From Candidatus Thorarchaeota archaeon (GTDB taxonomy: Archaea > Asgardarchaeota > Thorarchaeia > Thorarchaeales > Thorarchaeaceae), in NCBI GenBank assembly GCA_016839605.1, contig JAEOTX010000230.1, positions 1 through 23,695 on the forward strand: a stretch of DNA of 23,695 bases, in the 5' to 3' direction. Shown piece after piece: positions 4,144-22,485 of this stretch. Numbering within the stretch: position 1 is the first letter of the stretch; every line of letters begins with the position of its first letter. The notes under the pieces are model-generated. The model had not been told where the DNA came from. It saw nothing but the letters and a program-made list of their open reading frames with translations, and made no database searches. The position numbers were made by a program, and so were the translations under genes.

Positions 4144-4231
4144 TGGTGCGGGAGAGGGGACTTGAACCCCTGGACTCCTACGAGAGAGGATCTTAAGTCC
4201 TCCGCCTTTGACCGGTCTTGGCTACTCCCGC
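4144..4231 (-). tRNA. tRNA-Leu(TAA), CCA encoded
   Basis: GCGGGAG acceptor stem, GAGGA-CT-TAA-GA-TCCTC anticodon arm, long variable arm, GGTTCAAGTCC T-arm, ACCA end. Confidence 0.96.
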
Positions 4232-4346: not shown

Positions 4347-4456
4347 TGGTGGGCCGGGCCGGATTTGAACCAGCGACCTTCGAATCTGAAGAGCACAAAG
4401 CTCAACCAGTTTCTCGGTGTAAGCGAGACATCATAGCCGGGCTAGACTACCGGCCC
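4347..4456 (-). tRNA. tRNA-Val(TAC) with a 32-nt intron at position 44/45 (4379-4410), CCA encoded
   Basis: GGGCCGG acceptor stem, TCTCG-CT-TAC-AC-CGAGA anticodon arm, GCTGG-TTCAAAT-CCGGC T-arm. Removing 4379-4410 restores an AGGTC variable loop. TTTTATT box about 28 nt upstream. Confidence 0.9.
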
Positions 4457-10007: not shown

Positions 10008-10032
10008 ATGTAATACAGTTAATACCAGAGAT

Positions 10033-10665
10033 TCAACTCTCAGATTCCATCTGTTCTTTGAGGAACTTCAGTCTGAAGAAGTCTTCACGCTCTCTCTCTT
10101 CAAGGGCCTGTTTTACATATCGGGCAGTTGCATCCAATCTAGGAATTACAATTGTTTCAAGGGCTGAAACGCGTCTTTTAGTACGTTCAATTTCGATTGC
10201 CAGTCGTTTAACGGTTGAATCAATCTCGGCAAGACGTACTACAGCTTTCAGAGCTTCCTTAAACTTGGTTGACATCACATCAAGCTGGACGCTGGAATCT
10301 GGAAGTGAATATGGAAGCTGAGGGACATGTTGTTCTACTGATAGAACTGGAACTACCACACCCATCATGGACCTTGTGGATATTCTCAGATCCGCTTGGA
10401 CTTTACTTGCATTTGCGAACTCAACGACCTCAGCTGGACCCATGACCATCTTTGTTTTAGTTAGTGCAGAAAATGCTGAAGCTAGGGCCACATCAACCTC
10501 TTCCCTAGTCTTCTTAATCTCTTCAATTGAGTTGAAGAATTCCATAATTAGCGAGTCACGTTTCTCTTTGAGAAGATTATGACCTCGTTCTGCGAGTCTC
10601 ATCCTGTTCTTCAGTCGCAGGAGCTCCATTCGAGTCGTCTTGGTTCCAGGTAGAATTTTGCTCAT
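10033..10665 (-). CDS. atpD: A/V-type ATP synthase subunit D
   Basis: TRMELLRLK, GHNLLKEKRD, EIERTKRRVSALE and LEEREREDFFRLK motifs. Confidence 0.95.
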   Translation of the reverse strand: MSKILPGTKTTRMELLRLKNRMRLAERGHNLLKEKRDSLIMEFFNSIEEIKKTREEVDVALASAFSALTKTKMVMGPAEVVEFANASKVQADLRISTRSMMGVVVPVLSVEQHVPQLPYSLPDSSVQLDVMSTKFKEALKAVVRLAEIDSTVKRLAIEIERTKRRVSALETIVIPRLDATARYVKQALEEREREDFFRLKFLKEQMESES

Positions 10666-10742
10666 TGATCCTCACTTCGATGGATGAGATTGGTATAGTC
10701 AGTCGTGCAGATATTGTTGTCCTAAAACTGTTGTGATGCGCA

Positions 10743-11021
10743 TCATGCAAATGTAATGACTAATGCACTGACAAAAATGGCAAATGCACAGATAATGAGC
10801 CAGTCACGAATATACTTCTTCACCAAGCGGGGTCGGTCGTTGATTTGCCCGGTCGTGATAAGTGTCATAAATGAAATGAACAGGAATGCAAAGGGGAGAG
10901 CAACTGTTGGACTAGTTAGTTCTGCGTCTGTGATTAGAATTATTGCTGATAAGCCTCCGAAGATTAGGAAACTGAGTATCATCAGAGAGGTTAGTACATG
11001 CCGTATTCGATCGACATCCAT
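10743..11021 (-). CDS. Small membrane protein with about three transmembrane helices, function unknown
   Basis: Three hydrophobic segments; fills the gap between atpD and the ATPase gene. Confidence 0.7.
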   Translation of the reverse strand: MDVDRIRHVLTSLMILSFLIFGGLSAIILITDAELTSPTVALPFAFLFISFMTLITTGQINDRPRLVKKYIRDWLIICAFAIFVSALVITFA

Positions 11022-11135
11022 CTGGGAATTCTCCTATGTGAACGACCGGTCATGCCCGGACGTGCCTTCATGCCTATTCATCCTGTTCAAAAAGGTTGTG
11101 TCTTGAAAGTGCCAGACTGAGAGTTTACCACACGA

Positions 11136-11191
11136 TTTATTAGCGGCCAGTGCCCTGCCGGCATTGTATTACAAGAAGTACATGTGATACC
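11136..11191 (+). promoter_or_regulatory. TATA box (TTTATTA) followed by a triple 9-bp array, candidate operator of the ATPase-RHH operon
   Basis: TATA at 11136-11142; TGTATTACA-AGAAGTACA-TGTGATACC at 11165-11191 covers the expected transcription start; GAGGT ribosome-binding site at 11194-11198. Confidence 0.6.
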
Positions 11192-11204
11192 AAGAGGTCA
11201 CATC

Positions 11205-12179
11205 ATGACAATAGCGATACACGAAAGTGCGTTGATTCGCCACTTCAACACTCGCAAGGAAGTTTTGCGGGCCTGGGAGGAAAGAATCGGCGCCAGGTTC
11301 TCACCGTTTCGTGGGTATAAGATGCCGGACTCGCGTCTCTACGTTGAGCATCCGGACTTCTTAGACAGCATTGTCGATCTGATAATTACAAATGAGAGAC
11401 ACATCTTTCTCAGAGGACCGGTAGGTTCAGGGAAAAGTACTCTCATGTTGCTGGCACTCAGGGACCTGCCAACCCTAGCAGACCGACGAGGAAACAAATT
11501 CGTCACAGGCTATGTAGGGATGACCGGTCTTTATGAGAAACAGATGTCAGCAGCGATAGCAGACTCGTTGAGAGTAAAGTATCGCAGATCTTGGGAGTCA
11601 AGTCAGATCGTAGAATCAATTGCCCAAGAATGTGTGAGAAGATATAGGGAAGAGAAGAGCCGCACAGCCCTATTTGTGGAAGATGTTGCCGACAACCAAG
11701 AAGCGGCATTCCACAAGCTCAGATACCTTGCAGACCTGCCTACTCAGGAGATGAAAGCTGATCATCCAGAGGTGTTAGATGAGCCGATTATCACTTTGAT
11801 AATGTCGGGAACAGCTGTGTACTGGAACGCAATGCTAAGCTTCTTGCCGCAGATTGCGGATAGGACTGAGCCGCTTGATGTTCCTGCTCTAGACGATGAG
11901 AAAGCCAAGGAGTTCATTGGCAGAAGAATCGCCTATGCGAAAGGGCAGATTGACACCTTTGATTTGGATGATTACGGTGTCTACCCGTTCGCTGATGATG
12001 CTGTAGTAGTCATCAATACAGCGGCCAAGGGTAATCCACGTGACATTCGTATGTTGTCAAGAGGTTGTCAACAGGTGGCTGCAGAAAATTTCAGGCAGAA
12101 TGGCAATCCGGAAGTTAACAGAAAAATTGCAGAGCTTGTTTCGGATGCCTATGCTACAATACTGAGAGAGGTGCGTTAG
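11205..12179 (+). CDS. AAA+ ATPase, ExeA/GspA-TnsC-like (AAA_22-type), with no C-terminal winged helix
   Basis: PF...PD..LY N-terminal segment, Walker A GPVGSGKST, Walker B LFVED, Arg finger IADR, sensor II GNPRDI. ATG at 11205 chosen for its ribosome-binding site; the ORF track starts at GTG 11184. Confidence 0.85.
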   Translation: MTIAIHESALIRHFNTRKEVLRAWEERIGARFSPFRGYKMPDSRLYVEHPDFLDSIVDLIITNERHIFLRGPVGSGKSTLMLLALRDLPTLADRRGNKFVTGYVGMTGLYEKQMSAAIADSLRVKYRRSWESSQIVESIAQECVRRYREEKSRTALFVEDVADNQEAAFHKLRYLADLPTQEMKADHPEVLDEPIITLIMSGTAVYWNAMLSFLPQIADRTEPLDVPALDDEKAKEFIGRRIAYAKGQIDTFDLDDYGVYPFADDAVVVINTAAKGNPRDIRMLSRGCQQVAAENFRQNGNPEVNRKIAELVSDAYATILREVR

Positions 12180-12181
12180 GT

Positions 12182-12478
12182 TTGAGTGTTCTGAAAAAGT
12201 ATCGAGATGCTGGTGAAGAGGAAAGAGATTCAGCAAAGCCGGCTGCAGAGTCAGGGACTAGGGTTGCAGTAGAAAAACCAAAAGTTATGATTGCTGTGCC
12301 CAATAAAGAGCGAAAGAGTCCGATCGTGTCATTCTCGTTCACGACCGAACTTCGATCTTGTCTACAGAATGTGCGAAACGAAAAGGCAATCAATCTGAGT
12401 ATGTGGGTTGAGAGAAAGCTTCGAAAAGCGCTGACTGAGGAGTTCCCAGACATAGCCGACAAACATCTTGAAGTCTGA
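12182..12478 (+). CDS. Probable ribbon-helix-helix DNA-binding protein with a disordered N-terminal tail
   Basis: IVSFSF strand, TTELRSCLQNVRNEK helix and INLSMWVERKLRKAL helix. GAGGTG ribosome-binding site inside the ATPase 3' end; 2-nt gap to the ATPase gene. Confidence 0.75.
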   Translation: MSVLKKYRDAGEEERDSAKPAAESGTRVAVEKPKVMIAVPNKERKSPIVSFSFTTELRSCLQNVRNEKAINLSMWVERKLRKALTEEFPDIADKHLEV

Positions 12479-12496
12479 CCTATTCTCAGTGCATAA

Positions 12497-13891
12497 TTAG
12501 CTCTCTCTTGCACGCATCTCCGAGTATTCTGTAACTCGTGCCATGCATAGGGCAGCTAACGCCGGATTGTCGTAACAAGGAATACGATTCATCTCAAGTA
12601 GATCCTTTCCAGGTTTCCCTACATCACCTGCAAGCCACACTCCAACAACGGGCTTTTTGACATCTGCAGTCCGTATTCCTTCTAGGGTACCAGCTGCATG
12701 TTCAGTCTGTGTCATTCCAGCAAAAGTTGGTACTCCACATATCACTAATAGCATGTCGAGGTTAGGGTCTTTGAGCATCAGCTCAGTAGAAACTCGATAT
12801 TCTCCTCTCCCACCACTTGCAACAACATCTACAGGATTGTTGACTGATGCCATTGGAGATAGGACTTGACGTAATTCTTGACATGTCTTCTGCTCTAAGG
12901 CAGGGATATTGAGTCCGAGATCAGCTGATGCGTCGGTTGCAAGAACACCAGCTCCTCCTGTATTACTAATAATACCGATATTACGTCCTTTTGGTAGAGA
13001 TTGGTAATCAAACAACTTGGCTATTTCTAGAAGTGTGTCAAGAGAAGGAGCTGTCACACAGCCTGCCTGCCGAATCATTCCATCGAATATTGCCGTTGAG
13101 CCTGCCAATGATCCTGTGTGGGATTGGGTTGCTCGACTGCCAGCTTCACTCCTTCCACCCTTCAATACAACAACTGGTTTCTTCTTTGCAGCCCTAGTGA
13201 GAGACTCGAAGAAAGGTCGACCATCATCTACTCCCTCTATATAGACCATGATTACAGTGCTCTTTGGATCATCAGTGAAATAGTCAAGAATCTCCACGAA
13301 ACTGACATCAGCCGAGTTGCCAATACTAGCGAACTTGCTGAGACCAATACGTTTGGTGCGTGTGGTGTATATGAGCATACCACCAAGGGCTCCACTCTGG
13401 GAGATTAACGAGATATTGCCCCGTTCAGGCATCATAGTAAATGTGCCATTAAACAACCTACTGTTGGAAACACCCACACAATTAGGACCAATGATCCGAA
13501 CTCCTGCGTCTTGGGCAGCTCTGACTAGCTCTTCCTCAAGTTGTGCGCCCTGATGGCCTGTCTCACTGAAACCACCTGATATCACTACTGCAGCTTTGGC
13601 ACCAGCTCCTTGAATCTGACTCATTAGACCTGGACAATACTTTGCTGCAACGGCAACTATGACCAAGTCTACAGGCTCTGGAAGACTGTCAAGACTTGGG
13701 TATGCCTTGACCCCAAGGACCTGTTGCCTGCTACGAGTCACAGGATAGACATCAATCTCGGAAGTGATAAGGTTCATGAGAATAGAGTTACCCAACTTTC
13801 GATAATCAGATGATGCTCCGACTAGGGCAACACTTGAAGGATTGAAAAAGCAATCAATCTCATCGAATCCTTTGGATCCTAGATTGGTCAT
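12497..13891 (-). CDS. acdA: ADP-forming acyl/acetate-CoA synthetase, alpha subunit
   Basis: FNPSSVALVGAS, IGPNCVG, SQSGALG, SHTGSLAG (phospho-His), SNTGGAGV and NPVDV motifs. Start reassigned to ATG 13891. Confidence 0.92.
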   Translation of the reverse strand: MTNLGSKGFDEIDCFFNPSSVALVGASSDYRKLGNSILMNLITSEIDVYPVTRSRQQVLGVKAYPSLDSLPEPVDLVIVAVAAKYCPGLMSQIQGAGAKAAVVISGGFSETGHQGAQLEEELVRAAQDAGVRIIGPNCVGVSNSRLFNGTFTMMPERGNISLISQSGALGGMLIYTTRTKRIGLSKFASIGNSADVSFVEILDYFTDDPKSTVIMVYIEGVDDGRPFFESLTRAAKKKPVVVLKGGRSEAGSRATQSHTGSLAGSTAIFDGMIRQAGCVTAPSLDTLLEIAKLFDYQSLPKGRNIGIISNTGGAGVLATDASADLGLNIPALEQKTCQELRQVLSPMASVNNPVDVVASGGRGEYRVSTELMLKDPNLDMLLVICGVPTFAGMTQTEHAAGTLEGIRTADVKKPVVGVWLAGDVGKPGKDLLEMNRIPCYDNPALAALCMARVTEYSEMRARES

Positions 13892-13965
13892 GATTCTGAA
13901 CCAATTATGATTCGATTTATGTCTGCCGAGGGAAAGTCCGAGTTGTTGTATTACAAGTAATATTA

Positions 13966-15192
13966 TTACAAGGCTTCTCTCTTTAGAAAGTGCCTTAGGT
14001 GCCGGCGATTTTTGCATTCAGATTCCAAAGCCTCCTTAATCACAACCAGAGTTTCAGGGGATTTTTTCAGGATGTTGTCAAGAGCTTTCACTGAGGCTTT
14101 GATAATCCGTTCATCCATGGTCTTACAAACCAGGTCGACAATGGAATGGGCCGATGATTCGTGATAGAGATTTCCTAAGGCGATTATCGCCGGAGTAACA
14201 ATTCGTTGATCATCCACTCTAAGTAATTTCTCAAGGTGAGCAATTGAATTCAAATGACGAACTGCAACATGACCATTGATACATTGCAGCAGCTTTCGAT
14301 AGTCCTCACTTGATTTGGAAGTCATGTATTGAATGACAGCATCATCTAGTATTGCGTTCAGAGTAAATAGGGAATGCGTGCTGCCCTTGGATATGAGACC
14401 TTCAATGTCTTGACCTATGATGTGTTGGTGGAGTTCTTTGTACATCTGATTTGACGGGCTGACAATGGCTATCCCAGATACTTCTGCTGTTTCAGATGTT
14501 GTGATTCCTTGTTTCACTTCTGGTGATACTTGTATTACTGATAATACCATATCAAGTTGCTCTATTGATGCTTTAGTTCCTTTGATTCCAAGATCGGATA
14601 TAGCCAGGCGACCATATTCTGAATACCATAAATGTGTAAGATCCACATGTTCACCATCAAGTTTGAGAGTAAGATTGGCCATCTTTTCCGTCCGGATTGA
14701 TTCTAGTAGTCTACTGAGTTCATCGAACTTCTCATCCGGGGGGAAACTGAAGTATAGAGTGTCACCAGATTCTATTTGTTTCATTGCAGTTTCTTGTGCA
14801 TAGAGTATTAGTGACTGTGATGCATCGGCTAGAGAAGTCTTTGATTCTAGCATTTGAAGAAGGGTCATAGTATCTGTTTGCACTGGTTCAAGTCCACTGC
14901 AGGATAAAAGACTAAAGATCATTTCGCGGTACTTTAAGGGCTCAACTTGTGTCTGTTGTTTTCCGAAGCTGGCAGGAGTGGAATACATCTTGTCGGCTGC
15001 CGCAATGAGATATTCTAGTGCTGTATTCCATCCCTTGTTCTGTTCCACGGCTGCAACTAAGTCGAGCAGGTCTCGAGATCTTCTCTCACCTATGGCGTTA
15101 GTGATATCATGCAGAGTGTGTTCCATTTCTGCTTTTTCCGCACGTTCTCGACTTGCTCTTAGGAACCACTTGTCATCCCTGTCATCCGACAT
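13966..15192 (-). CDS. Hypothetical alpha-helical protein with C-terminal HEAT-like repeats
   Basis: Long ORF; IVTPAIIALGNL and IIKASVKALDNI resemble HEAT repeats; GGAG upstream of ATG 15192. Confidence 0.7.
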   Translation of the reverse strand: MSDDRDDKWFLRASRERAEKAEMEHTLHDITNAIGERRSRDLLDLVAAVEQNKGWNTALEYLIAAADKMYSTPASFGKQQTQVEPLKYREMIFSLLSCSGLEPVQTDTMTLLQMLESKTSLADASQSLILYAQETAMKQIESGDTLYFSFPPDEKFDELSRLLESIRTEKMANLTLKLDGEHVDLTHLWYSEYGRLAISDLGIKGTKASIEQLDMVLSVIQVSPEVKQGITTSETAEVSGIAIVSPSNQMYKELHQHIIGQDIEGLISKGSTHSLFTLNAILDDAVIQYMTSKSSEDYRKLLQCINGHVAVRHLNSIAHLEKLLRVDDQRIVTPAIIALGNLYHESSAHSIVDLVCKTMDERIIKASVKALDNILKKSPETLVVIKEALESECKNRRHLRHFLKREAL

Positions 15193-15384
15193 GCTCGGTT
15201 CGACTCCTGCAGTAATGCTGGAATCCTTGTTTCGAGTGATAAGACTTTGTCCAGCTGTTCTGTATTGTTTGTATCTTTTGTAATACAATGGAATAATGCC
15301 TGAGAAGACGCGTCTTTTTGGTGCCTGAAGGAGAAGATGAATCTGTTCTAAGATTAGAACTATGTATACTTGTGACCCTGTAAA

Positions 15385-15567
15385 GTATGAGTATGTCGTG
15401 TCAATGGCAGACTAGTGCTATGGGATTTCCATCCTTTGGCACCCTCAAACACCCGTCGTTGGCATCTCTATCTCCTCAAGTAAAGTACCTCCAAGAAGAT
15501 CCAATGCCGGCATGAGTTCGGTGCTAGGAAACCTGACTGACTTGCCGCAGATACGACATGCTCGTGC
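15385..15567 (+). ncRNA. Putative structured non-coding RNA of about 183 nt, family not recognised
   Basis: 18-bp terminal helix (15385-15402/15550-15567) and three further nested helices. All non-Watson-Crick pairs are G-U on the plus strand. TATA-like TATGTATA at 15361; T-rich tract at 15570-15579. Confidence 0.7.
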
Positions 15568-15577
15568 CGTTTCTTTT

Positions 15578-16171
15578 CTATGGTTCAGACTTACGCTTGG
15601 ACAGCTCAGACTTGAGTACTGTGGACGAAGTTAGTTCCTCTAGTGCCGAGAGGATGGTTCGCTCAGCTGAGCTATAGCTCTCGATTTCTTCGTCAGAGAG
15701 TTCTGTCTTCCCGGCCAATACATCACGTATTTTCCGATAGTCACCAATCCTTGTAGCTATCTCTTCAAACGGTCTAAAGAGTGTGAAGTCGAATAGACCA
15801 AGATAAGCAAGAAGCAGCATTGTGTATAGACAACGTGTTACATTTCTTCGGGCTTGTCCTAGAGTTCTATTGAACGCACCTCGTGAAACACCACTGGTTC
15901 TTCCCTTCCTTTTCGATCTGAAAGATGCCTTCCTATCATATGGTATGTGACTACCATGTTCATCTTCAACAACGAGGTCTATCAGAAGAGTTTCTAGCTG
16001 GACTTTCGTAAGCGTGGACTGATTGAGCAATGCCTTCATGATAGGTTCCTGCAAGACTCTTTGTGCCCCATCTGCAAGTTGTTTCACAGTATCACGACGT
16101 TTGGTTTTGGACCTTTTCTGACTCATTTGTGCTAGCCTCAAAATGGAGGAAATTGGAAAAGGAGGCTTCAT
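15578..16171 (-). CDS. Hypothetical protein, probable helix-turn-helix DNA-binding protein
   Basis: STLTKVQLETL...VSRGAFNRTLGQARRN has a sigma-region-4/Tfx-like HTH pattern. Alternative start at 16126. Confidence 0.75.
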   Translation of the reverse strand: MKPPFPISSILRLAQMSQKRSKTKRRDTVKQLADGAQRVLQEPIMKALLNQSTLTKVQLETLLIDLVVEDEHGSHIPYDRKASFRSKRKGRTSGVSRGAFNRTLGQARRNVTRCLYTMLLLAYLGLFDFTLFRPFEEIATRIGDYRKIRDVLAGKTELSDEEIESYSSAERTILSALEELTSSTVLKSELSKRKSEP

Positions 16172-16296
16172 AATGCTCCTTTCGTACCTCAGTTACGTAT
16201 GTCTGTATGGATACAATTTTGTATACAATGGAAGTCATAAACCTTCCCGGAGTAAGCTTGTGATACGCTTGTAATACAACAATTAATAGTTGAGAG

Positions 16297-16713
16297 CTAC
16301 CTGAATGGTAGTTTCCACTCTGATTCGGGGGGGGTTAGCACAAATCCAAGGATCAGATTGCCACGTATCTCATCAAACTTGAAAACGCCGAAGACATAAT
16401 TCGTATTGTTCATAGTCCACTCGACTCTACCCCGCGTGAGATAGTGTTGGAATATCGCACGGCATTGCTTACGTACTTGTGTGAATAGGTTCCGGTATCG
16501 CTTCCTTTGCGACGGCCGAATTCCCCATCTCTCAAGAATGAATCTATTGGCCAGACTGTTGCTCGAGAGCAAGGTGGATTTCTCTTTCTTCCTTAGCTTC
16601 TCTACGGTTTCCAGAAGAATACTCCTGAAGCAGTCCGGAATACTCGCTAGGATAGAAGGAGTAGTTTCTGGTTCGAACAGCAAAGGCCGGGAATTGTCAC
16701 CTGAAGCGCGCAC
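16297..16713 (-). CDS. Basic hypothetical protein, possible winged helix
   Basis: Three predicted helices followed by a beta-rich C-terminus; Arg/Lys rich; fills the intergenic gap. Confidence 0.65.
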   Translation of the reverse strand: MRASGDNSRPLLFEPETTPSILASIPDCFRSILLETVEKLRKKEKSTLLSSNSLANRFILERWGIRPSQRKRYRNLFTQVRKQCRAIFQHYLTRGRVEWTMNNTNYVFGVFKFDEIRGNLILGFVLTPPESEWKLPFR

Positions 16714-16844
16714 GTCAGTTCATGACTCTGTGGTCATTAGCGCCTTAAGAGGTCATATAATGAACTATCGCACTTTGCACATGCCACTTCATTGGATTAA
16801 TATCTACAACTGATACCGGTCCAACATAGTGGAGACAGATTCAC

Positions 16845-19178
16845 TTGAAGCAGAGAGCCGAAATCCATGTGACTGGTATTGTCCAGGGAGTTGGATTCAG
16901 GCCCTTTGTCTATCGAGTTGCCACTGACCACTCATTGGTAGGATTTGTGCTTAATCTAGGGGATGCTGGTGTTCAGATTGTTGTCGAAGGGAAGCGTAGT
17001 GAGATTGATGACTTCCTCAAACAACTGCATTCGAACCCTCCCTCCATTTCACGTATTGATTCGGTTGATATTGAATGGGGATCAGCAACAAACACCTTTG
17101 ATTCCTTTTCGATAAAGAAGTCTTCTACAAAGAGATCTACAGAGTCTGCCCCAGAGATGCCCCCTGATATTGCCATTTGTGAAGACTGTGTCGGAGAGCT
17201 GAGAAGTTCTGATTCACGATGGTATCAGTATCCGTTCACTTCATGCGCAGCATGCGGTCCAAGATACTCAACTATCACTAGTCTTCCCTACGACCGGCCA
17301 AACACTACGATGGTAGATTTTCCCCTATGTAATGTTTGTAATACAGGTTATACAAGTCCATTGGATCGAAGATATCATGCTCAGACAACAGCGTGTGATA
17401 GTTGTGGACCAAGATACCAGCTCTATGATGCAGACGGAAAACTGTTGAAGGGAATCAACTGTATCGATCAGGCAGCACGTCTGTTGGAGAGTAATTCTGT
17501 CCTCGCACTTCATGGCATAGGTGGAACGCATCTTGTGACAAAGACCTCAGACTATAAGCCGATTAGAGTTCTGAGGGAGAGAAAGAATAGGTTTCAACGG
17601 CCATTTGCCATCATGGCCAAAAATCCTGAGGTGTTATTTCAGTTCAGTGTACCCACAGAAAATGAACTACAGCTTATGAAAACTTGGCGAAGGCCTATCA
17701 TCTTAGTCAAGAAGCGTGATGGTTCAAGCCTACCTCAAGAATCACTTGAAGAGATTTCGCCCGGCTTAGATACATTGGGTGTCATGTTACCCTATGCTCC
17801 TCTTCATCATCTTCTGTTTGACAACCTTGATGAGGATGCCTTGGTAATGACAAGTGCGAATCCTACAGGTGTTCCGATGTACATAGACCCATCAGTGATA
17901 ACTTCTGAGTTGGGCGGGGTGGCAGACTATTTCTTGCTGCACAATCGACGAATCCATCAGAGAGCAGATGATTCAGTAATCAAATTCGTTGGCAGTGAAA
18001 ATCCGGTGTTCATTCGACGTGCCAGAGGTTATGTACCCGAACCTTTGGTAATGGACCACATTCATCCTTCAACAAAGGTTGTTGCAGTGGGACCTGAATT
18101 GAAATCTACTGGTGCGGTCCTTAAGTCCAAGAAAATATACATGACTCAGCATATCGGTGATACTGATCGAGTCGAGAACATTGACTTCCTCAGAAACAGC
18201 ATCAATCATCTGATGTTTCTGCTTGGTATCGATGGTGTCGATGGATACGCATGTGACTTGCATCCAGAATTCTTGAGTACAGACCTTGCGGAAAAGATTT
18301 CCTCCGAAATGGATGTGCCATTATATCGGGTACAGCACCATCATGCACATCTTGCAAGTATGCTTGTGGATCATAAAATGAATCTTGATACAAGTATTGT
18401 TTGTATTACAGCCGATGGTTATGGCTATGGTCCCAATGGAGAAGGATGGGGTGGTGACATACTTGTTGGAAACGGGACAGATTTCCTCAGAAGAGGTGGA
18501 CTGGCACCAAGCTTGTATCCTGGAGGCGATCTTTCTGCAAGATATGCAGCACGGTCTCTGATAGGTATCCTTGGAAATGCAGTTGAAACAGAAGATATCT
18601 TGACGGTGTTGTCAGGATCACGAATTGCCTCAGATATGGACCTCTCAGAAGAAACTCTTTCATTACTCTTGCGTGCAAGAAAACAGGACATCAATGTTCT
18701 TCGAAGCACTAGTGTAGGAAGATTCCTTGATGCAGCGGCAATCGCATTGCGAATCTGCTCTGAGAATTCCTATGACGGAGAGTGTCCTATGAAACTGGAA
18801 GCTCATGCATCTGATTCCGATCTTACTATTGAACCGGACTTTGTTTCAAATGGTGATGTGATAGAGCTGAACCCCGTAGACTCTCTCATTAAGATTCTGA
18901 ACCTTAAGAAAGAAGGAATTTCCATCCCCAAAATAGCATATGCCGTACAGCGGCATATTGGTCAAGCACTTGCGAATATGGCATGTGATATTGCTGAAGC
19001 TGAGGACATTGAGTATGTTGGATTTTCTGGAGGTGTGGCCTTGAATCGGATTATTACAGGAGCAATAGTTGATGTGGTTAACTCCAGAACAAAGAAATCT
19101 CTCATCCATGATAGGGTACCACCTGGAGATGGAGGTGTTTCAGCTGGACAGATAGCTGTTGCAGCTGCCAAATGCTAG
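16845..19178 (+). CDS. hypF: [NiFe]-hydrogenase maturation carbamoyltransferase
   Basis: GIVQGVGFRPFVY acylphosphatase domain, paired CxxC Zn fingers, DLHP, QHHHAH and PPGDGGVSAGQ motifs. Confidence 0.97.
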   Translation: MKQRAEIHVTGIVQGVGFRPFVYRVATDHSLVGFVLNLGDAGVQIVVEGKRSEIDDFLKQLHSNPPSISRIDSVDIEWGSATNTFDSFSIKKSSTKRSTESAPEMPPDIAICEDCVGELRSSDSRWYQYPFTSCAACGPRYSTITSLPYDRPNTTMVDFPLCNVCNTGYTSPLDRRYHAQTTACDSCGPRYQLYDADGKLLKGINCIDQAARLLESNSVLALHGIGGTHLVTKTSDYKPIRVLRERKNRFQRPFAIMAKNPEVLFQFSVPTENELQLMKTWRRPIILVKKRDGSSLPQESLEEISPGLDTLGVMLPYAPLHHLLFDNLDEDALVMTSANPTGVPMYIDPSVITSELGGVADYFLLHNRRIHQRADDSVIKFVGSENPVFIRRARGYVPEPLVMDHIHPSTKVVAVGPELKSTGAVLKSKKIYMTQHIGDTDRVENIDFLRNSINHLMFLLGIDGVDGYACDLHPEFLSTDLAEKISSEMDVPLYRVQHHHAHLASMLVDHKMNLDTSIVCITADGYGYGPNGEGWGGDILVGNGTDFLRRGGLAPSLYPGGDLSARYAARSLIGILGNAVETEDILTVLSGSRIASDMDLSEETLSLLLRARKQDINVLRSTSVGRFLDAAAIALRICSENSYDGECPMKLEAHASDSDLTIEPDFVSNGDVIELNPVDSLIKILNLKKEGISIPKIAYAVQRHIGQALANMACDIAEAEDIEYVGFSGGVALNRIITGAIVDVVNSRTKKSLIHDRVPPGDGGVSAGQIAVAAAKC

Positions 19179-19783
19179 AGTAGTGCTTCAACCGCTTTCA
19201 TTCCAAGTTCAAGAGCTTGTACATTAGTCCCTTCGAACTTCTTTGGGAATGTTGTCCGTACAATATCAATTGCTGTCTTCTTTTGAATGGGTGTAATTCC
19301 TGTCCCAAGAATTCCACCTAGCATTACCATATTCACTGACATAGAACTGCCAGCCTGTTGTGCCAAGGCCATGGCATCAATCTCAAGAATACGAGTGGTG
19401 AACTTCTTGAAACTACTGATGATTTCCTCATGACTTGGATACTCTGCTTTGCCCATTGATACTGCGACGGGATACTGAATGTGGGAACTTACTAATACGG
19501 ATCCATCTTCTGCGACGGTCTGAATCTCCCTTAGAGTTTCAACAGGTTCAAAGCCCACGAGTAAATCAGCAGTACCAGAATCAACTATTGGTCCTCTTGC
19601 TCCATCTCCAATTCGAACAGTACAGACAACATGACCTCCACGTTGAGCCATTCCATGAATCTCACCGACACGAACATTCAGTGAATCTGCGAGTGCCGCC
19701 TTTGCAAGAATCTCAGCAAGAGTAAGAACACCTTGACCTCCAACGCCAGTGATGGCAACATTGATTGTATTATTACCAGTCAT
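19175..19783 (-). CDS. iorB: Indolepyruvate:ferredoxin oxidoreductase subunit beta
   Basis: GVGGQG, EIHGMAQRGG and VNMVMLG motifs; follows iorA. Confidence 0.95.
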   Translation of the reverse strand: MTGNNTINVAITGVGGQGVLTLAEILAKAALADSLNVRVGEIHGMAQRGGHVVCTVRIGDGARGPIVDSGTADLLVGFEPVETLREIQTVAEDGSVLVSSHIQYPVAVSMGKAEYPSHEEIISSFKKFTTRILEIDAMALAQQAGSSMSVNMVMLGGILGTGITPIQKKTAIDIVRTTFPKKFEGTNVQALELGMKAVEALL

Positions 19784-19785
19784 CT

Positions 19786-21678
19786 CTATACCTCCTCTTG
19801 CTTAATTGCACCTTGAGGGCAGACAGAAACACAAGTACCGCACAGATTGCACAGTGTTTCATCTATCACCGCCTTTTCGGTTTCAGGATCCTGGTACATT
19901 GCCGGACAAGACAAACGGTTCAGACAACGCTTGCAAGCCGTACATGTTTCTTCATCAACATAATATTTGGAAGGATACTCGCCGCTTCTCTGACGTTCAG
20001 CTGCTGTAAGAAGAGCGCATGGTTCTATTGACACCATCACTGCTGGTGCTTGGTTTTCCCTAACCCATGTCACCATTTCCCTGACTTCTGCAACCATAGT
20101 CGCCATGGAATCGAATGGTTGGATAGTCTTAACATACTTCACACCAAGCCCCTTGCATACCTCTGCAATATCCAGAGGTGTAACCTGTTCTTGCATTCCC
20201 GTGACTCCTGTACCAGGATGTGGTTGGTGTCCTGTCATTGCCGTAGTTCGATTATCGAGAACTACTAAACTGATGGGGTGACTGTTGTATACTGCATTGG
20301 CAATACCGGGTAGTCCAGAAGCAAAGAAAGTACTGTCACCAATTGTAGCCACAACGTCTTGACCTGTCACACGGACAATTCCACAAGCTGTGGTGATTGA
20401 GGATCCCATATCAAAAAGGATGTCAGCAGTTTCAAGGGGCGGTGCTATACTGAGTGTGTAGCACCCGATATCTGAGGGATAGATTGCCTTTCCGCGTGTG
20501 GCGGTTCTGATAGCATAGTAAGTCGCTCTATGAGGACATCCCGCACAGAGAAGAGGAGGTCTTGGGGGCAAATCCGGAAGCTTTCCAGTCTTCTTGTCTA
20601 TCTTCTCCCAGTTAATACTTGTATTACGATTTATAATTCTAGAGAGTGCTGTGATAACAATTCGGGGACTGTACTCAAATGCCCTGGAAAAGTATCCTTG
20701 TTCTTTTCCAAGAATCTCTACAGATATCTTATTGACCTGAGCAATCCTTCTTGCATGAGTTTCTAGGAATGGTTCTAGCTCCTCAACAATCACAACTCTC
20801 TTGTGATGTTTGAGAAATTCCCCGATTTTCCCTTCAGGTACTGGATGAGTCATACCAAGTTTGAGAACTTCTGCTGAGAGTTCCATTGATTCGAGTGCTT
20901 CAAGGACGTAGTTGTATGATACCCCACTAGTGATTATTCCAAGGTCTCCTTCACCGTATGTGAAATTAAGTGAAGTTGTTTCAGAAACCTCCATTGCCTT
21001 CCTCATGGTTTCAAGAAGTATGGGATGACGTTTTCTAGCAACTGATGGTATTGGAACGAATCGAAATGGATCCTTTTCAAACTCGACTGTTGTAGGACGC
21101 TCCCTGATTTTTCCAAACTCTACAGGAGCTCTTGTATGATTGACACGTGTGGTTGTCCTAAGTAGTACTGGAAGTTCCAACTTCTCTGATATCTCATATG
21201 CCTCAATAAGCATCGATTTTGCCTCGGCAGGATCAGCTGGTTCAACCATTGGCATATTGCCCATTAGGGCATAGTATCTACTGTCATTCTCATTCTGAGA
21301 GCTCCACATACTAGGGTCGTCTGCTACCACGATGACCATACCGGCACGTACACCGATGTAAGTCAATGAAAAGAATGGATCAGCTGCGACATTGAGACCT
21401 GGCCCCTTGCATACCATCATTGATCGTACGCCTGCAACTGCGGCGGCACCAGCAACTTCCAAGGCGACCTTTTCGTTGGCACTGAACTCGAAGTAAAAGT
21501 TTGGTATGTTAGGTGCCATGAATGTGAGATTGTTACCAATTTCACTGCTTGGAGTACCAGGATAAAGCGCAACCAGTCGTACTCCAGCTTCAAGAACGCC
21601 TCGTGCTATTGCCTCGTTAGCAAGAAGAAGAGATTTCTTTCCCACTTTGTCTTCAAGAAGTTCTTTGGGTTTGGTCAA
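19786..21678 (-). CDS. iorA: Indolepyruvate:ferredoxin oxidoreductase subunit alpha
   Basis: YPGTPSSEI, NEKVALE, CAGCPHR, SDIGCY, GDSTF, DNRTTAMTGHQ and a C-terminal 2x[4Fe-4S] domain. Confidence 0.97.
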   Translation of the reverse strand: MTKPKELLEDKVGKKSLLLANEAIARGVLEAGVRLVALYPGTPSSEIGNNLTFMAPNIPNFYFEFSANEKVALEVAGAAAVAGVRSMMVCKGPGLNVAADPFFSLTYIGVRAGMVIVVADDPSMWSSQNENDSRYYALMGNMPMVEPADPAEAKSMLIEAYEISEKLELPVLLRTTTRVNHTRAPVEFGKIRERPTTVEFEKDPFRFVPIPSVARKRHPILLETMRKAMEVSETTSLNFTYGEGDLGIITSGVSYNYVLEALESMELSAEVLKLGMTHPVPEGKIGEFLKHHKRVVIVEELEPFLETHARRIAQVNKISVEILGKEQGYFSRAFEYSPRIVITALSRIINRNTSINWEKIDKKTGKLPDLPPRPPLLCAGCPHRATYYAIRTATRGKAIYPSDIGCYTLSIAPPLETADILFDMGSSITTACGIVRVTGQDVVATIGDSTFFASGLPGIANAVYNSHPISLVVLDNRTTAMTGHQPHPGTGVTGMQEQVTPLDIAEVCKGLGVKYVKTIQPFDSMATMVAEVREMVTWVRENQAPAVMVSIEPCALLTAAERQRSGEYPSKYYVDEETCTACKRCLNRLSCPAMYQDPETEKAVIDETLCNLCGTCVSVCPQGAIKQEEV

Positions 21679-21873
21679 CCACCTAGCCTCCGATCTCCCT
21701 AGCTGTAACTGGGATGAATCGTCCGGAGATGACTCAGTCTATCAACCTTGTGGTATTGGAAATTACAATCTTGTAGATTCTGTAATACATATAATACAAT
21801 AGATTGGATAGTTTTACTAGATTGGAACACGTGTTCTAACATATTGACGTACCCTATATCCAGGTATTATAGT

Positions 21874-22049
21874 CTGACACCCCTTCATTTCCAGTGGAGA
21901 TGATAAAATGGTGTGATCAGAGCGGTGAATGTATGATGATGATAAAATGGAGATAAATGCGAGCTCCATAAACGACTATTTATATATATCTATTTCGAAA
22001 AGTATCGAAACTTTCAAAAGTTTCTAATGGAAATCAAGGGGTGTGTCAG
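21874..22049. other. Archaeal origin of replication: two inverted ORB elements flanking an AT-rich unwinding element
   Basis: Minus-strand ORB TCTCCACTGGAAATGAAGGGGTGTCAG (21874-21900) and plus-strand ORB TTTCTAATGGAAATCAAGGGGTGTGTCAG (22021-22049) fit the TCCA-TGGAAA-G-string pattern. The 120-bp spacer contains TATTTATATATATCTATTT (21977-21995). Confidence 0.85.
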
Positions 22050-22073
22050 GTACTGGAACACGTGTTCCAAACA

Positions 22074-22361
22074 TCATACTTCTCTTACAACTTCAAAAAT
22101 TCTGGCCTTCAAGATGTCTGAATATGATGCAAACAGCGAATCAAAGAGAGATCTGTATTCACCAGGTACAAATATCGCAGAATCTGCCACTGCATATGCA
22201 CCTTCTGACGTATCAATGAGACCTGGTTTCCTTCGCTGCTTAATTCCAGTCTTTGTCTTCCAGGAATAGGCATATCCATACAGCTCCTTTGTGAATGAAA
22301 CACGTCGGGCATTGGTTTCACGTGCACGCCTACAATCATACAAATAGAGGAAAAATGCCAT
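22074..22361 (-). CDS. 95-aa protein, probable Cas2/VapD-like ferredoxin fold
   Basis: MAFFLYLYD (first strand ending in YD), RRVSFTKELYGY helix, DSAIFVP strand. Start reassigned to ATG 22361 because the longer ORF overlaps the next gene. Confidence 0.65.
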   Translation of the reverse strand: MAFFLYLYDCRRARETNARRVSFTKELYGYAYSWKTKTGIKQRRKPGLIDTSEGAYAVADSAIFVPGEYRSLFDSLFASYSDILKARIFEVVREV

Positions 22362-22485
22362 AGAAATTGGAACACATGTTCGTATTTTCAGGCTTAGTAA
22401 TACAAAATTGTTCCAATATGGAAAGGTTAATGCAATGGAAGTGTTCCACGCGAATTGCCTTTTGGAAGCAGGCAGGAGCTCCCAG

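Follow-up and report, generated by a model that had tools for sequence, protein, structure and literature searches.

A small RNA gene of the Thorarchaeaceae with a conserved promoter, a covarying end-to-end stem and anti-Shine-Dalgarno-like loop motifs

The gap between two protein-coding genes in a contig of a thorarchaeal genome contains a real, stand-alone and previously uncatalogued small RNA gene, which represents a new and well-supported RNA family of the Thorarchaeaceae. It has a conserved promoter, a covarying end-to-end stem and an apical loop with two pyrimidine-rich motifs that resemble the anti-Shine-Dalgarno (anti-SD) sequence; the family is new, its functional kind is already known and it comes with a candidate regulator. 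The gene sits in contig C182, all 23,695 nt of which were analysed (the window), from a genome that is 80% complete. An earlier note had proposed from the sequence that an unrecognised gene for a structured RNA, under selection at the RNA level, lies here, and this is borne out by covariation, strand asymmetry, single-copy occurrence, synteny and a promoter of its own at fixed spacing, although the anti-SD-like loop and the upstream operator were absent from that reading. The features of the locus, in window coordinates, are:

13966-15192, minus strand: HEAT-repeat gene (weak HEAT_2 match), divergent neighbour outside the RNA unit
15345-15360, no strand assigned: palindromic candidate operator GTTCTA-N4-TAGAAC, overlapping the BRE position, in all extracted homologues
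15361-15368, plus strand: TATA box with a TATGTA core, its T-A-T-G-T-A columns 93-100% conserved in 59 homologues
About 15389-15579, plus strand: small non-coding RNA gene of about 190 nt, its 5′ end placed from the TATA spacing and a conserved pyrimidine-G step
15389-15402, plus strand: closing stem P1, 5′ strand, 96.9% of cells paired
15550-15563, plus strand: closing stem P1, 3′ strand, partner of 15389-15402
15405-15457, plus strand: variable 5′ middle arm, with the TGGCAG helix and a side hairpin (15415-15442); alternative rod pairings possible
15458-15505, plus strand: apical stem, 15458-15469 pairing with 15494-15505, and the conserved loop that it closes
15463-15478, plus strand: near-invariant core CAUCUCUAUCUCCUCA, mostly unpaired, antisense of an SD, spacer and AUG
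15470-15477, plus strand: loop motif 1, AUCUCCUC
15487-15492, plus strand: loop motif 2, ACCUCC, matching the 16S anti-SD and usually unpaired
15570-15579, plus strand: U-rich terminator tract, with at least six T within the last 12 nt in 53 of 59 homologues
15578-16171, minus strand: convergent uncharacterised gene (an ORF; the HTH gene of the earlier note)

The overall shape of the RNA is a rod, in which a closing stem leads through the variable middle arm to an apical stem and a loop of about 20-30 nt; homologues are about 145-200 nt long. The plus strand folds with a z-score of -4.45, a stability equalled by none of 200 shuffles, against -1.58 for the minus strand, and over 59 homologues the median z-scores are -4.9 and -2.4 respectively, with the plus strand the better in 54. 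P1 is a continuous 14-bp helix with compensatory change at nine of its 14 pairs among the homologues, the kind of covariation that the earlier note had suggested looking for. For a structure of 25 pairs, none of 500 shuffles did as well on four of five measures and one did on the fifth, in a control that ignores the relatedness of the homologues; the structure also beats all slid controls. Within the apical stem, pairing is kept in about 80% of cells across the family, with compensatory changes, when calculated from a sequence-only alignment, and in 98% in genus g12.

All of the helix arms listed in the earlier note lie where it placed them and are able to pair, and several of its helices hold: the closing stem, 18 bp long and including four G-U pairs, has a pairing probability of about 1.0, the TGGCAG/TTGCCG helix 0.56-1.0 and the GGGAT hairpin 0.64-0.81. 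Outside the genus the three outermost pairs of this closing stem are not kept, so the RNA probably starts near G15389. Two inner helices fared worse, since CTAGTGCT/GGTGCTAG has a probability of 0.00, its 5′ GTGCT preferring GGCAC at 15438-15442 (0.8), and GTTGGCAT/ATGCCGGC one of 0.13, the favoured register being GTTGG/CCAAT plus ATC/GAT (about 0.85), which is nearly unbroken in eight members of the genus. Taken as a complete fold, the earlier arrangement reaches -57.4 kcal/mol at best, 13 kcal/mol above the optimum of -70.2.

Neither the region nor homologues from 16 loci match any Rfam family. SRP RNA and RNase P RNA were rejected on this ground and because both are encoded elsewhere in the genome. 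The size and rod shape are shared with bacterial 6S RNA, a likeness already raised in the earlier note, and in genus g12 one middle-arm segment keeps both its pairing as a hairpin (92%) and its pairing as a rod (90%), as an RNA that rearranges might do. That the RNA binds RNA polymerase as a mimic of an open promoter is nevertheless very improbable: the conservation peak is the terminal loop, the middle arm varies by about 50 nt in length and also in pairing, there is no conserved central bubble between two long stems, and no 6S match is found in Rfam. We know of no archaeal 6S RNA. The companion suggestion of a Y RNA, which would fit the paired ends, pyrimidine-rich loop and U tail, was discarded, since no Ro60/TROVE gene is present in 86 genomes of the family (23 of them at least 90% complete, with positive controls detected), P1 is continuous and lacks the bulged Ro-binding helix, and there is no Rfam match.

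BLAST finds one copy of the RNA gene in most genomes of the family, and a covariance model built from 53 homologues gives a single, syntenic match in 34 of 37 Thorarchaeaceae genomes; no match occurs in any of the 22 other Asgard families searched. The model further recognises three metagenome contigs that were not among its training sequences, and all are syntenic. Homologues were not found in 101 genomes of a Bathyarchaeon's class, in a search run without a positive control, nor in viral contigs with the loop pattern. One metagenome contig (L410) carries the loop pattern four times at a spacing of about 631 bp with no match to the model, and these repeats are thus unrelated to the RNA gene. 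A MITE or other mobile inverted repeat was rejected, because each genome has a single copy and its locus is fixed.

The RNA gene lies in the gap between the divergent HEAT-repeat gene and the convergent gene, and its U tract meets the stop codon of the latter, which has no Pfam or NCBIfam match and occurs in other Asgard families without the RNA. Gene order is kept among the homologues; in genus g2 the RNA and its own promoter are inverted, and the HEAT gene is missing beside the RNA at four loci (L160, L168, L173 and L178). It follows that the RNA is not a UTR, and an origin as the UTR of either the HEAT or the HTH gene is ruled out because the RNA moves together with its own promoter. The syntenic gap is down to about 80 bp in genomes G057 and G059, and in G056 and G060 it is without promoter and loop; the RNA has therefore been lost from these four genomes and is dispensable in one subclade.

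The apical loop is the best-conserved part of the RNA, its motifs staying fixed while the stems vary. Motif 1 and ATCTCCTC both occur in 59 of 59 extracted homologues, the extraction having tolerated one mismatch, and the 13-mer TCTCTATCTCCTC in 55 of 59; motif 2 is found within one mismatch in 55 of 59, at 3-12 nt 3′ of motif 1. Motif 1 agrees with the 3′ end of 16S rRNA at seven of eight positions. Read as its reverse complement, the core gives GAGGAG, 6 nt and AUG, and an antisense ATG stands at that spacing in 41 of 59 homologues. The antisense frame encodes 2-86 codons with no conserved peptide, and a small antisense ORF or type I toxin-antitoxin was rejected accordingly. SD usage in this genome is canonical, at -14 to -7 (GGAGG seen 92 times against 13 expected), and the complement of motif 2, GGAGGT, occurs in 30 of 786 start windows against five of 700 coding windows.

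We consider the chances about even that this is a trans-acting small RNA that masks ribosome-binding sites under the control of a transmembrane regulator, and from its sequence features it would probably dampen translation upon a signal at the cell surface. It has its own promoter and terminator, is non-coding and carries a conserved, unpaired anti-SD seed. A signal sensed at the membrane would turn the RNA on or off through an ArsR-type regulator (described below), the loop motifs would serve as seeds pairing with the SD region of several mRNAs, and opening of the apical stem could extend the pairing toward the AUG; loading of the 30S subunit would then be blocked, in the manner of RsaE/RoxS or of sRNA154 and sRNA41 of Methanosarcina mazei. 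Stability would come from the closing stem and the U tail, which could possibly also offer a docking point for an Lsm protein; two Lsm genes are present in the genome.

No conserved target mRNA was found, the whole-genome scan covering one genome; several genomes more than 90% complete hold no perfect 12-nt complement besides the RNA gene itself, and no perfect complement is common across genomes. The gene iorB was considered as a specific target and set aside, its pairing of -22.1 kcal/mol here not being conserved (median -11.6), as was pairing of the P1 3′ strand with the HEAT start, which is present in this genome only. Pairing with neighbouring and regulon genes is no stronger than the average, and these are not targets; the predicted targets show no enrichment for envelope proteins. 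The loop has a modest preference for start regions (-2.45 against -1.95 ± 0.32 for shuffled loops), which is partly circular because starts were picked by SD strength.

The near-invariant core of 13 nt exceeds what SD pairing requires. A role as a protein decoy, in which the loop would mimic the 16S 3′ end or display a C/U-rich motif that titrates an RNA-binding protein, as CsrB titrates CsrA, with no pairing to mRNA, accounts for the invariance about as well as SD masking does, and on the whole we regard it as possible though somewhat unlikely. The agreement of both motifs with the 16S end is what such a decoy would need, as is a loop that is invariant across 15 genera without an invariant target, and the two motifs are joined by a flexible linker; yet just two motifs are present, no partner protein was identified, and an anti-AUG triplet, itself also part of the stem, is correctly spaced in most homologues.

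RsaE/RoxS of the Firmicutes is a trans-acting RNA with two C-rich motifs proposed to bind the SD, and its transcription needs the membrane-sensing SrrAB/ResDE (PMC6158497). The thorarchaeal RNA resembles it in its two C-rich motifs, which would be directed at the SD, and in its predicted membrane-sensing control, but shows no homology to it, being archaeal and a single long rod with both motifs in one apical loop, and its probable regulator is a one-component transmembrane protein. In the cuckoo RNAs of Alphaproteobacteria (RSs0680/CcsR, ar14), which often occur in several copies, two to four hairpins stand side by side and each carries CCUCCUCCC (PMC4615179). An invariant anti-SD-like loop motif on variable stems and a conserved genomic context are common to both, whereas the thorarchaeal RNA is single-copy and forms one rod closed at its ends, with the motifs AUCUCCUC and ACCUCC; membership of the cuckoo family was rejected on its single apical loop and other motifs. 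Among archaea, M. mazei sRNA154 (through loop 2) and sRNA41 mask ribosome-binding sites of identified targets, and these and sRNA162 are likewise intergenic and condition-controlled (PMC5867862), although they belong to another lineage, have another fold and show no detected homology. A search of the open-access literature turned up no publication on thorarchaeotal small RNAs.

The TATA-like box and the U tract that the earlier note had pointed out are both present and conserved. The palindrome abuts the TATA box and lies 40-41 nt upstream of the RNA 5′ end in every extracted homologue, and the way it overlaps the BRE position points to control by repression and relief. One to three palindrome sites occur in 72 of 86 genomes, against 11 control matches in total, and the sole perfect site in genera g12, g15 and g16 is nearly always the one at the RNA promoter. 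Most of the second sites that were examined follow a gene whose product is an ArsR-type winged-helix protein with two hydrophobic C-terminal helices, 2 or 3 bases past its stop codon, and they stand upstream of the gene for a membrane-anchored surface protein. When distinct loci were chosen by protein similarity, the palindrome was found directly 3′ of the regulator stop in 23 of 29. A search of genome contigs with the palindrome only gave mostly chance matches, and the Bathyarchaeia loci came from the same search; in a Bathyarchaeon (L115) and a Nitrososphaerote (L059) the palindrome lies between a homologous regulator and a secreted-protein gene.

From this adjacency alone we strongly infer that the palindrome is the operator of the ArsR-type winged-helix protein with two membrane helices, and that its other sites precede surface-protein genes. 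In this genome the closest orthologue of the regulator is encoded at G000 C113:3809-4258, where the palindrome site after the gene has been lost, and a paralogue at C156:9596-10024; the next-best intergenic sites, both degenerate, are C101:833-848, before a membrane-anchored surface protein, and C156:9519-9577, after the paralogue. The four genomes that have lost the RNA also show no close orthologue of the regulator, and this co-loss is probably one event, although several incomplete RNA-bearing genomes are likewise without an orthologue match. At the second operator site of locus L329 (G007:C54), TGAGTGTGTC starts at the same distance as the RNA 5′ end, a layout that hints at a common origin for the promoters of the RNA and of the surface protein.

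Transmembrane transcription regulators are common in archaea (PMC10269533). The candidate regulator shares with ArnR/ArnR1, ToxR and CadC the combination of a DNA-binding domain with membrane helices and a tie to surface-structure genes (PMC10269533, PMC6396743), and differs from them as a small ArsR-type protein with two C-terminal helices; a literature search found no report of an archaeal transmembrane regulator controlling a small RNA. A broader scheme, which we hold to be rather doubtful, is that the membrane-embedded one-component regulator would switch on an RNA bearing copies of the anti-SD as a global throttle on an envelope signal, soaking up SD-led mRNAs or decoying a factor that binds the 16S 3′ end. 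The defined seed, the defined operator and the named candidate regulator make SD masking testable without culturing the organism and, if true, it would place bacterial-style riboregulation by SD masking under a membrane sensor in the lineage nearest to eukaryotes.

The window also carries 15 GTAWTAC boxes (10010-22397), several of them intragenic, near genes for an AAA ATPase (11184-12179) and a small partner protein (12182-12478). We think it improbable that the RNA is a structural or regulatory component of this origin-side cassette, with a role in replication or segregation. Its fixed position in the contig richest in GTAWTAC (the top density in the genome) would agree with such a role, as would the location of the cassette genes near ORB-like elements in other Asgard genomes, but other Asgard families and four Thorarchaeaceae genomes have the cassette and lack the RNA, the RNA inverts independently with its own promoter, and its operator is part of the surface-protein regulon. 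Separately, two gaps that look like origins, in which inverted ORB-type boxes surround an AT-rich core (L281:370-760 and L278:5740-6090), are flanked by TAGAAC-N4-GTTCTA palindromes, which are the operator half-sites in reversed order.

Among the 3′ ends of 16S rRNA genes at L158 (G000:C82), L340, L343, L342 and L341, those of G000, G023 and G004 contain a bulge-helix-bulge-like insertion of 23-30 nt between helix 45 and the anti-SD. Its 4-bp helix covaries (GCTG/CAGC against GATG/CATC) and its excision gives GGATCACCTCCT. We note that G025 has a 16S gene without the insertion and that in G002 an insertion lies inside helix 45. An interruption just before the anti-SD could call for a guide or chaperone of a stable RNA, or for a substitute anti-SD, but it is most improbable that the RNA serves in this way: alignment of the homologues shows no conserved C/D or H/ACA boxes, and complementarity of the core to 16S and 23S rRNA is at the shuffle level in four of five rRNAs. 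The specific case of a trans anti-SD replacing a missing 16S end was rejected, as excision restores GGATCACCTCCT and G025 has the RNA together with an uninterrupted 16S end.

Helix 45 of G000 is unlike that of its relatives, so that C82 could be mis-binned; the 16S gene of this contig also has about 600 extra bases between the 515 and 1390 primer sites, suggesting further introns. At about 11555 on the minus strand of G000:C41 there is an intergenic element with a long end-to-end stem, an CUUCCUCCUU loop and a U-rich tail, a candidate for a second C-rich small RNA. Rfam identifies two tRNA genes on the minus strand of the window, at 4147-4231 and 4350-4456, and in the second about 33 nt are inserted behind the anticodon arm, possibly an intron at an unusual position.
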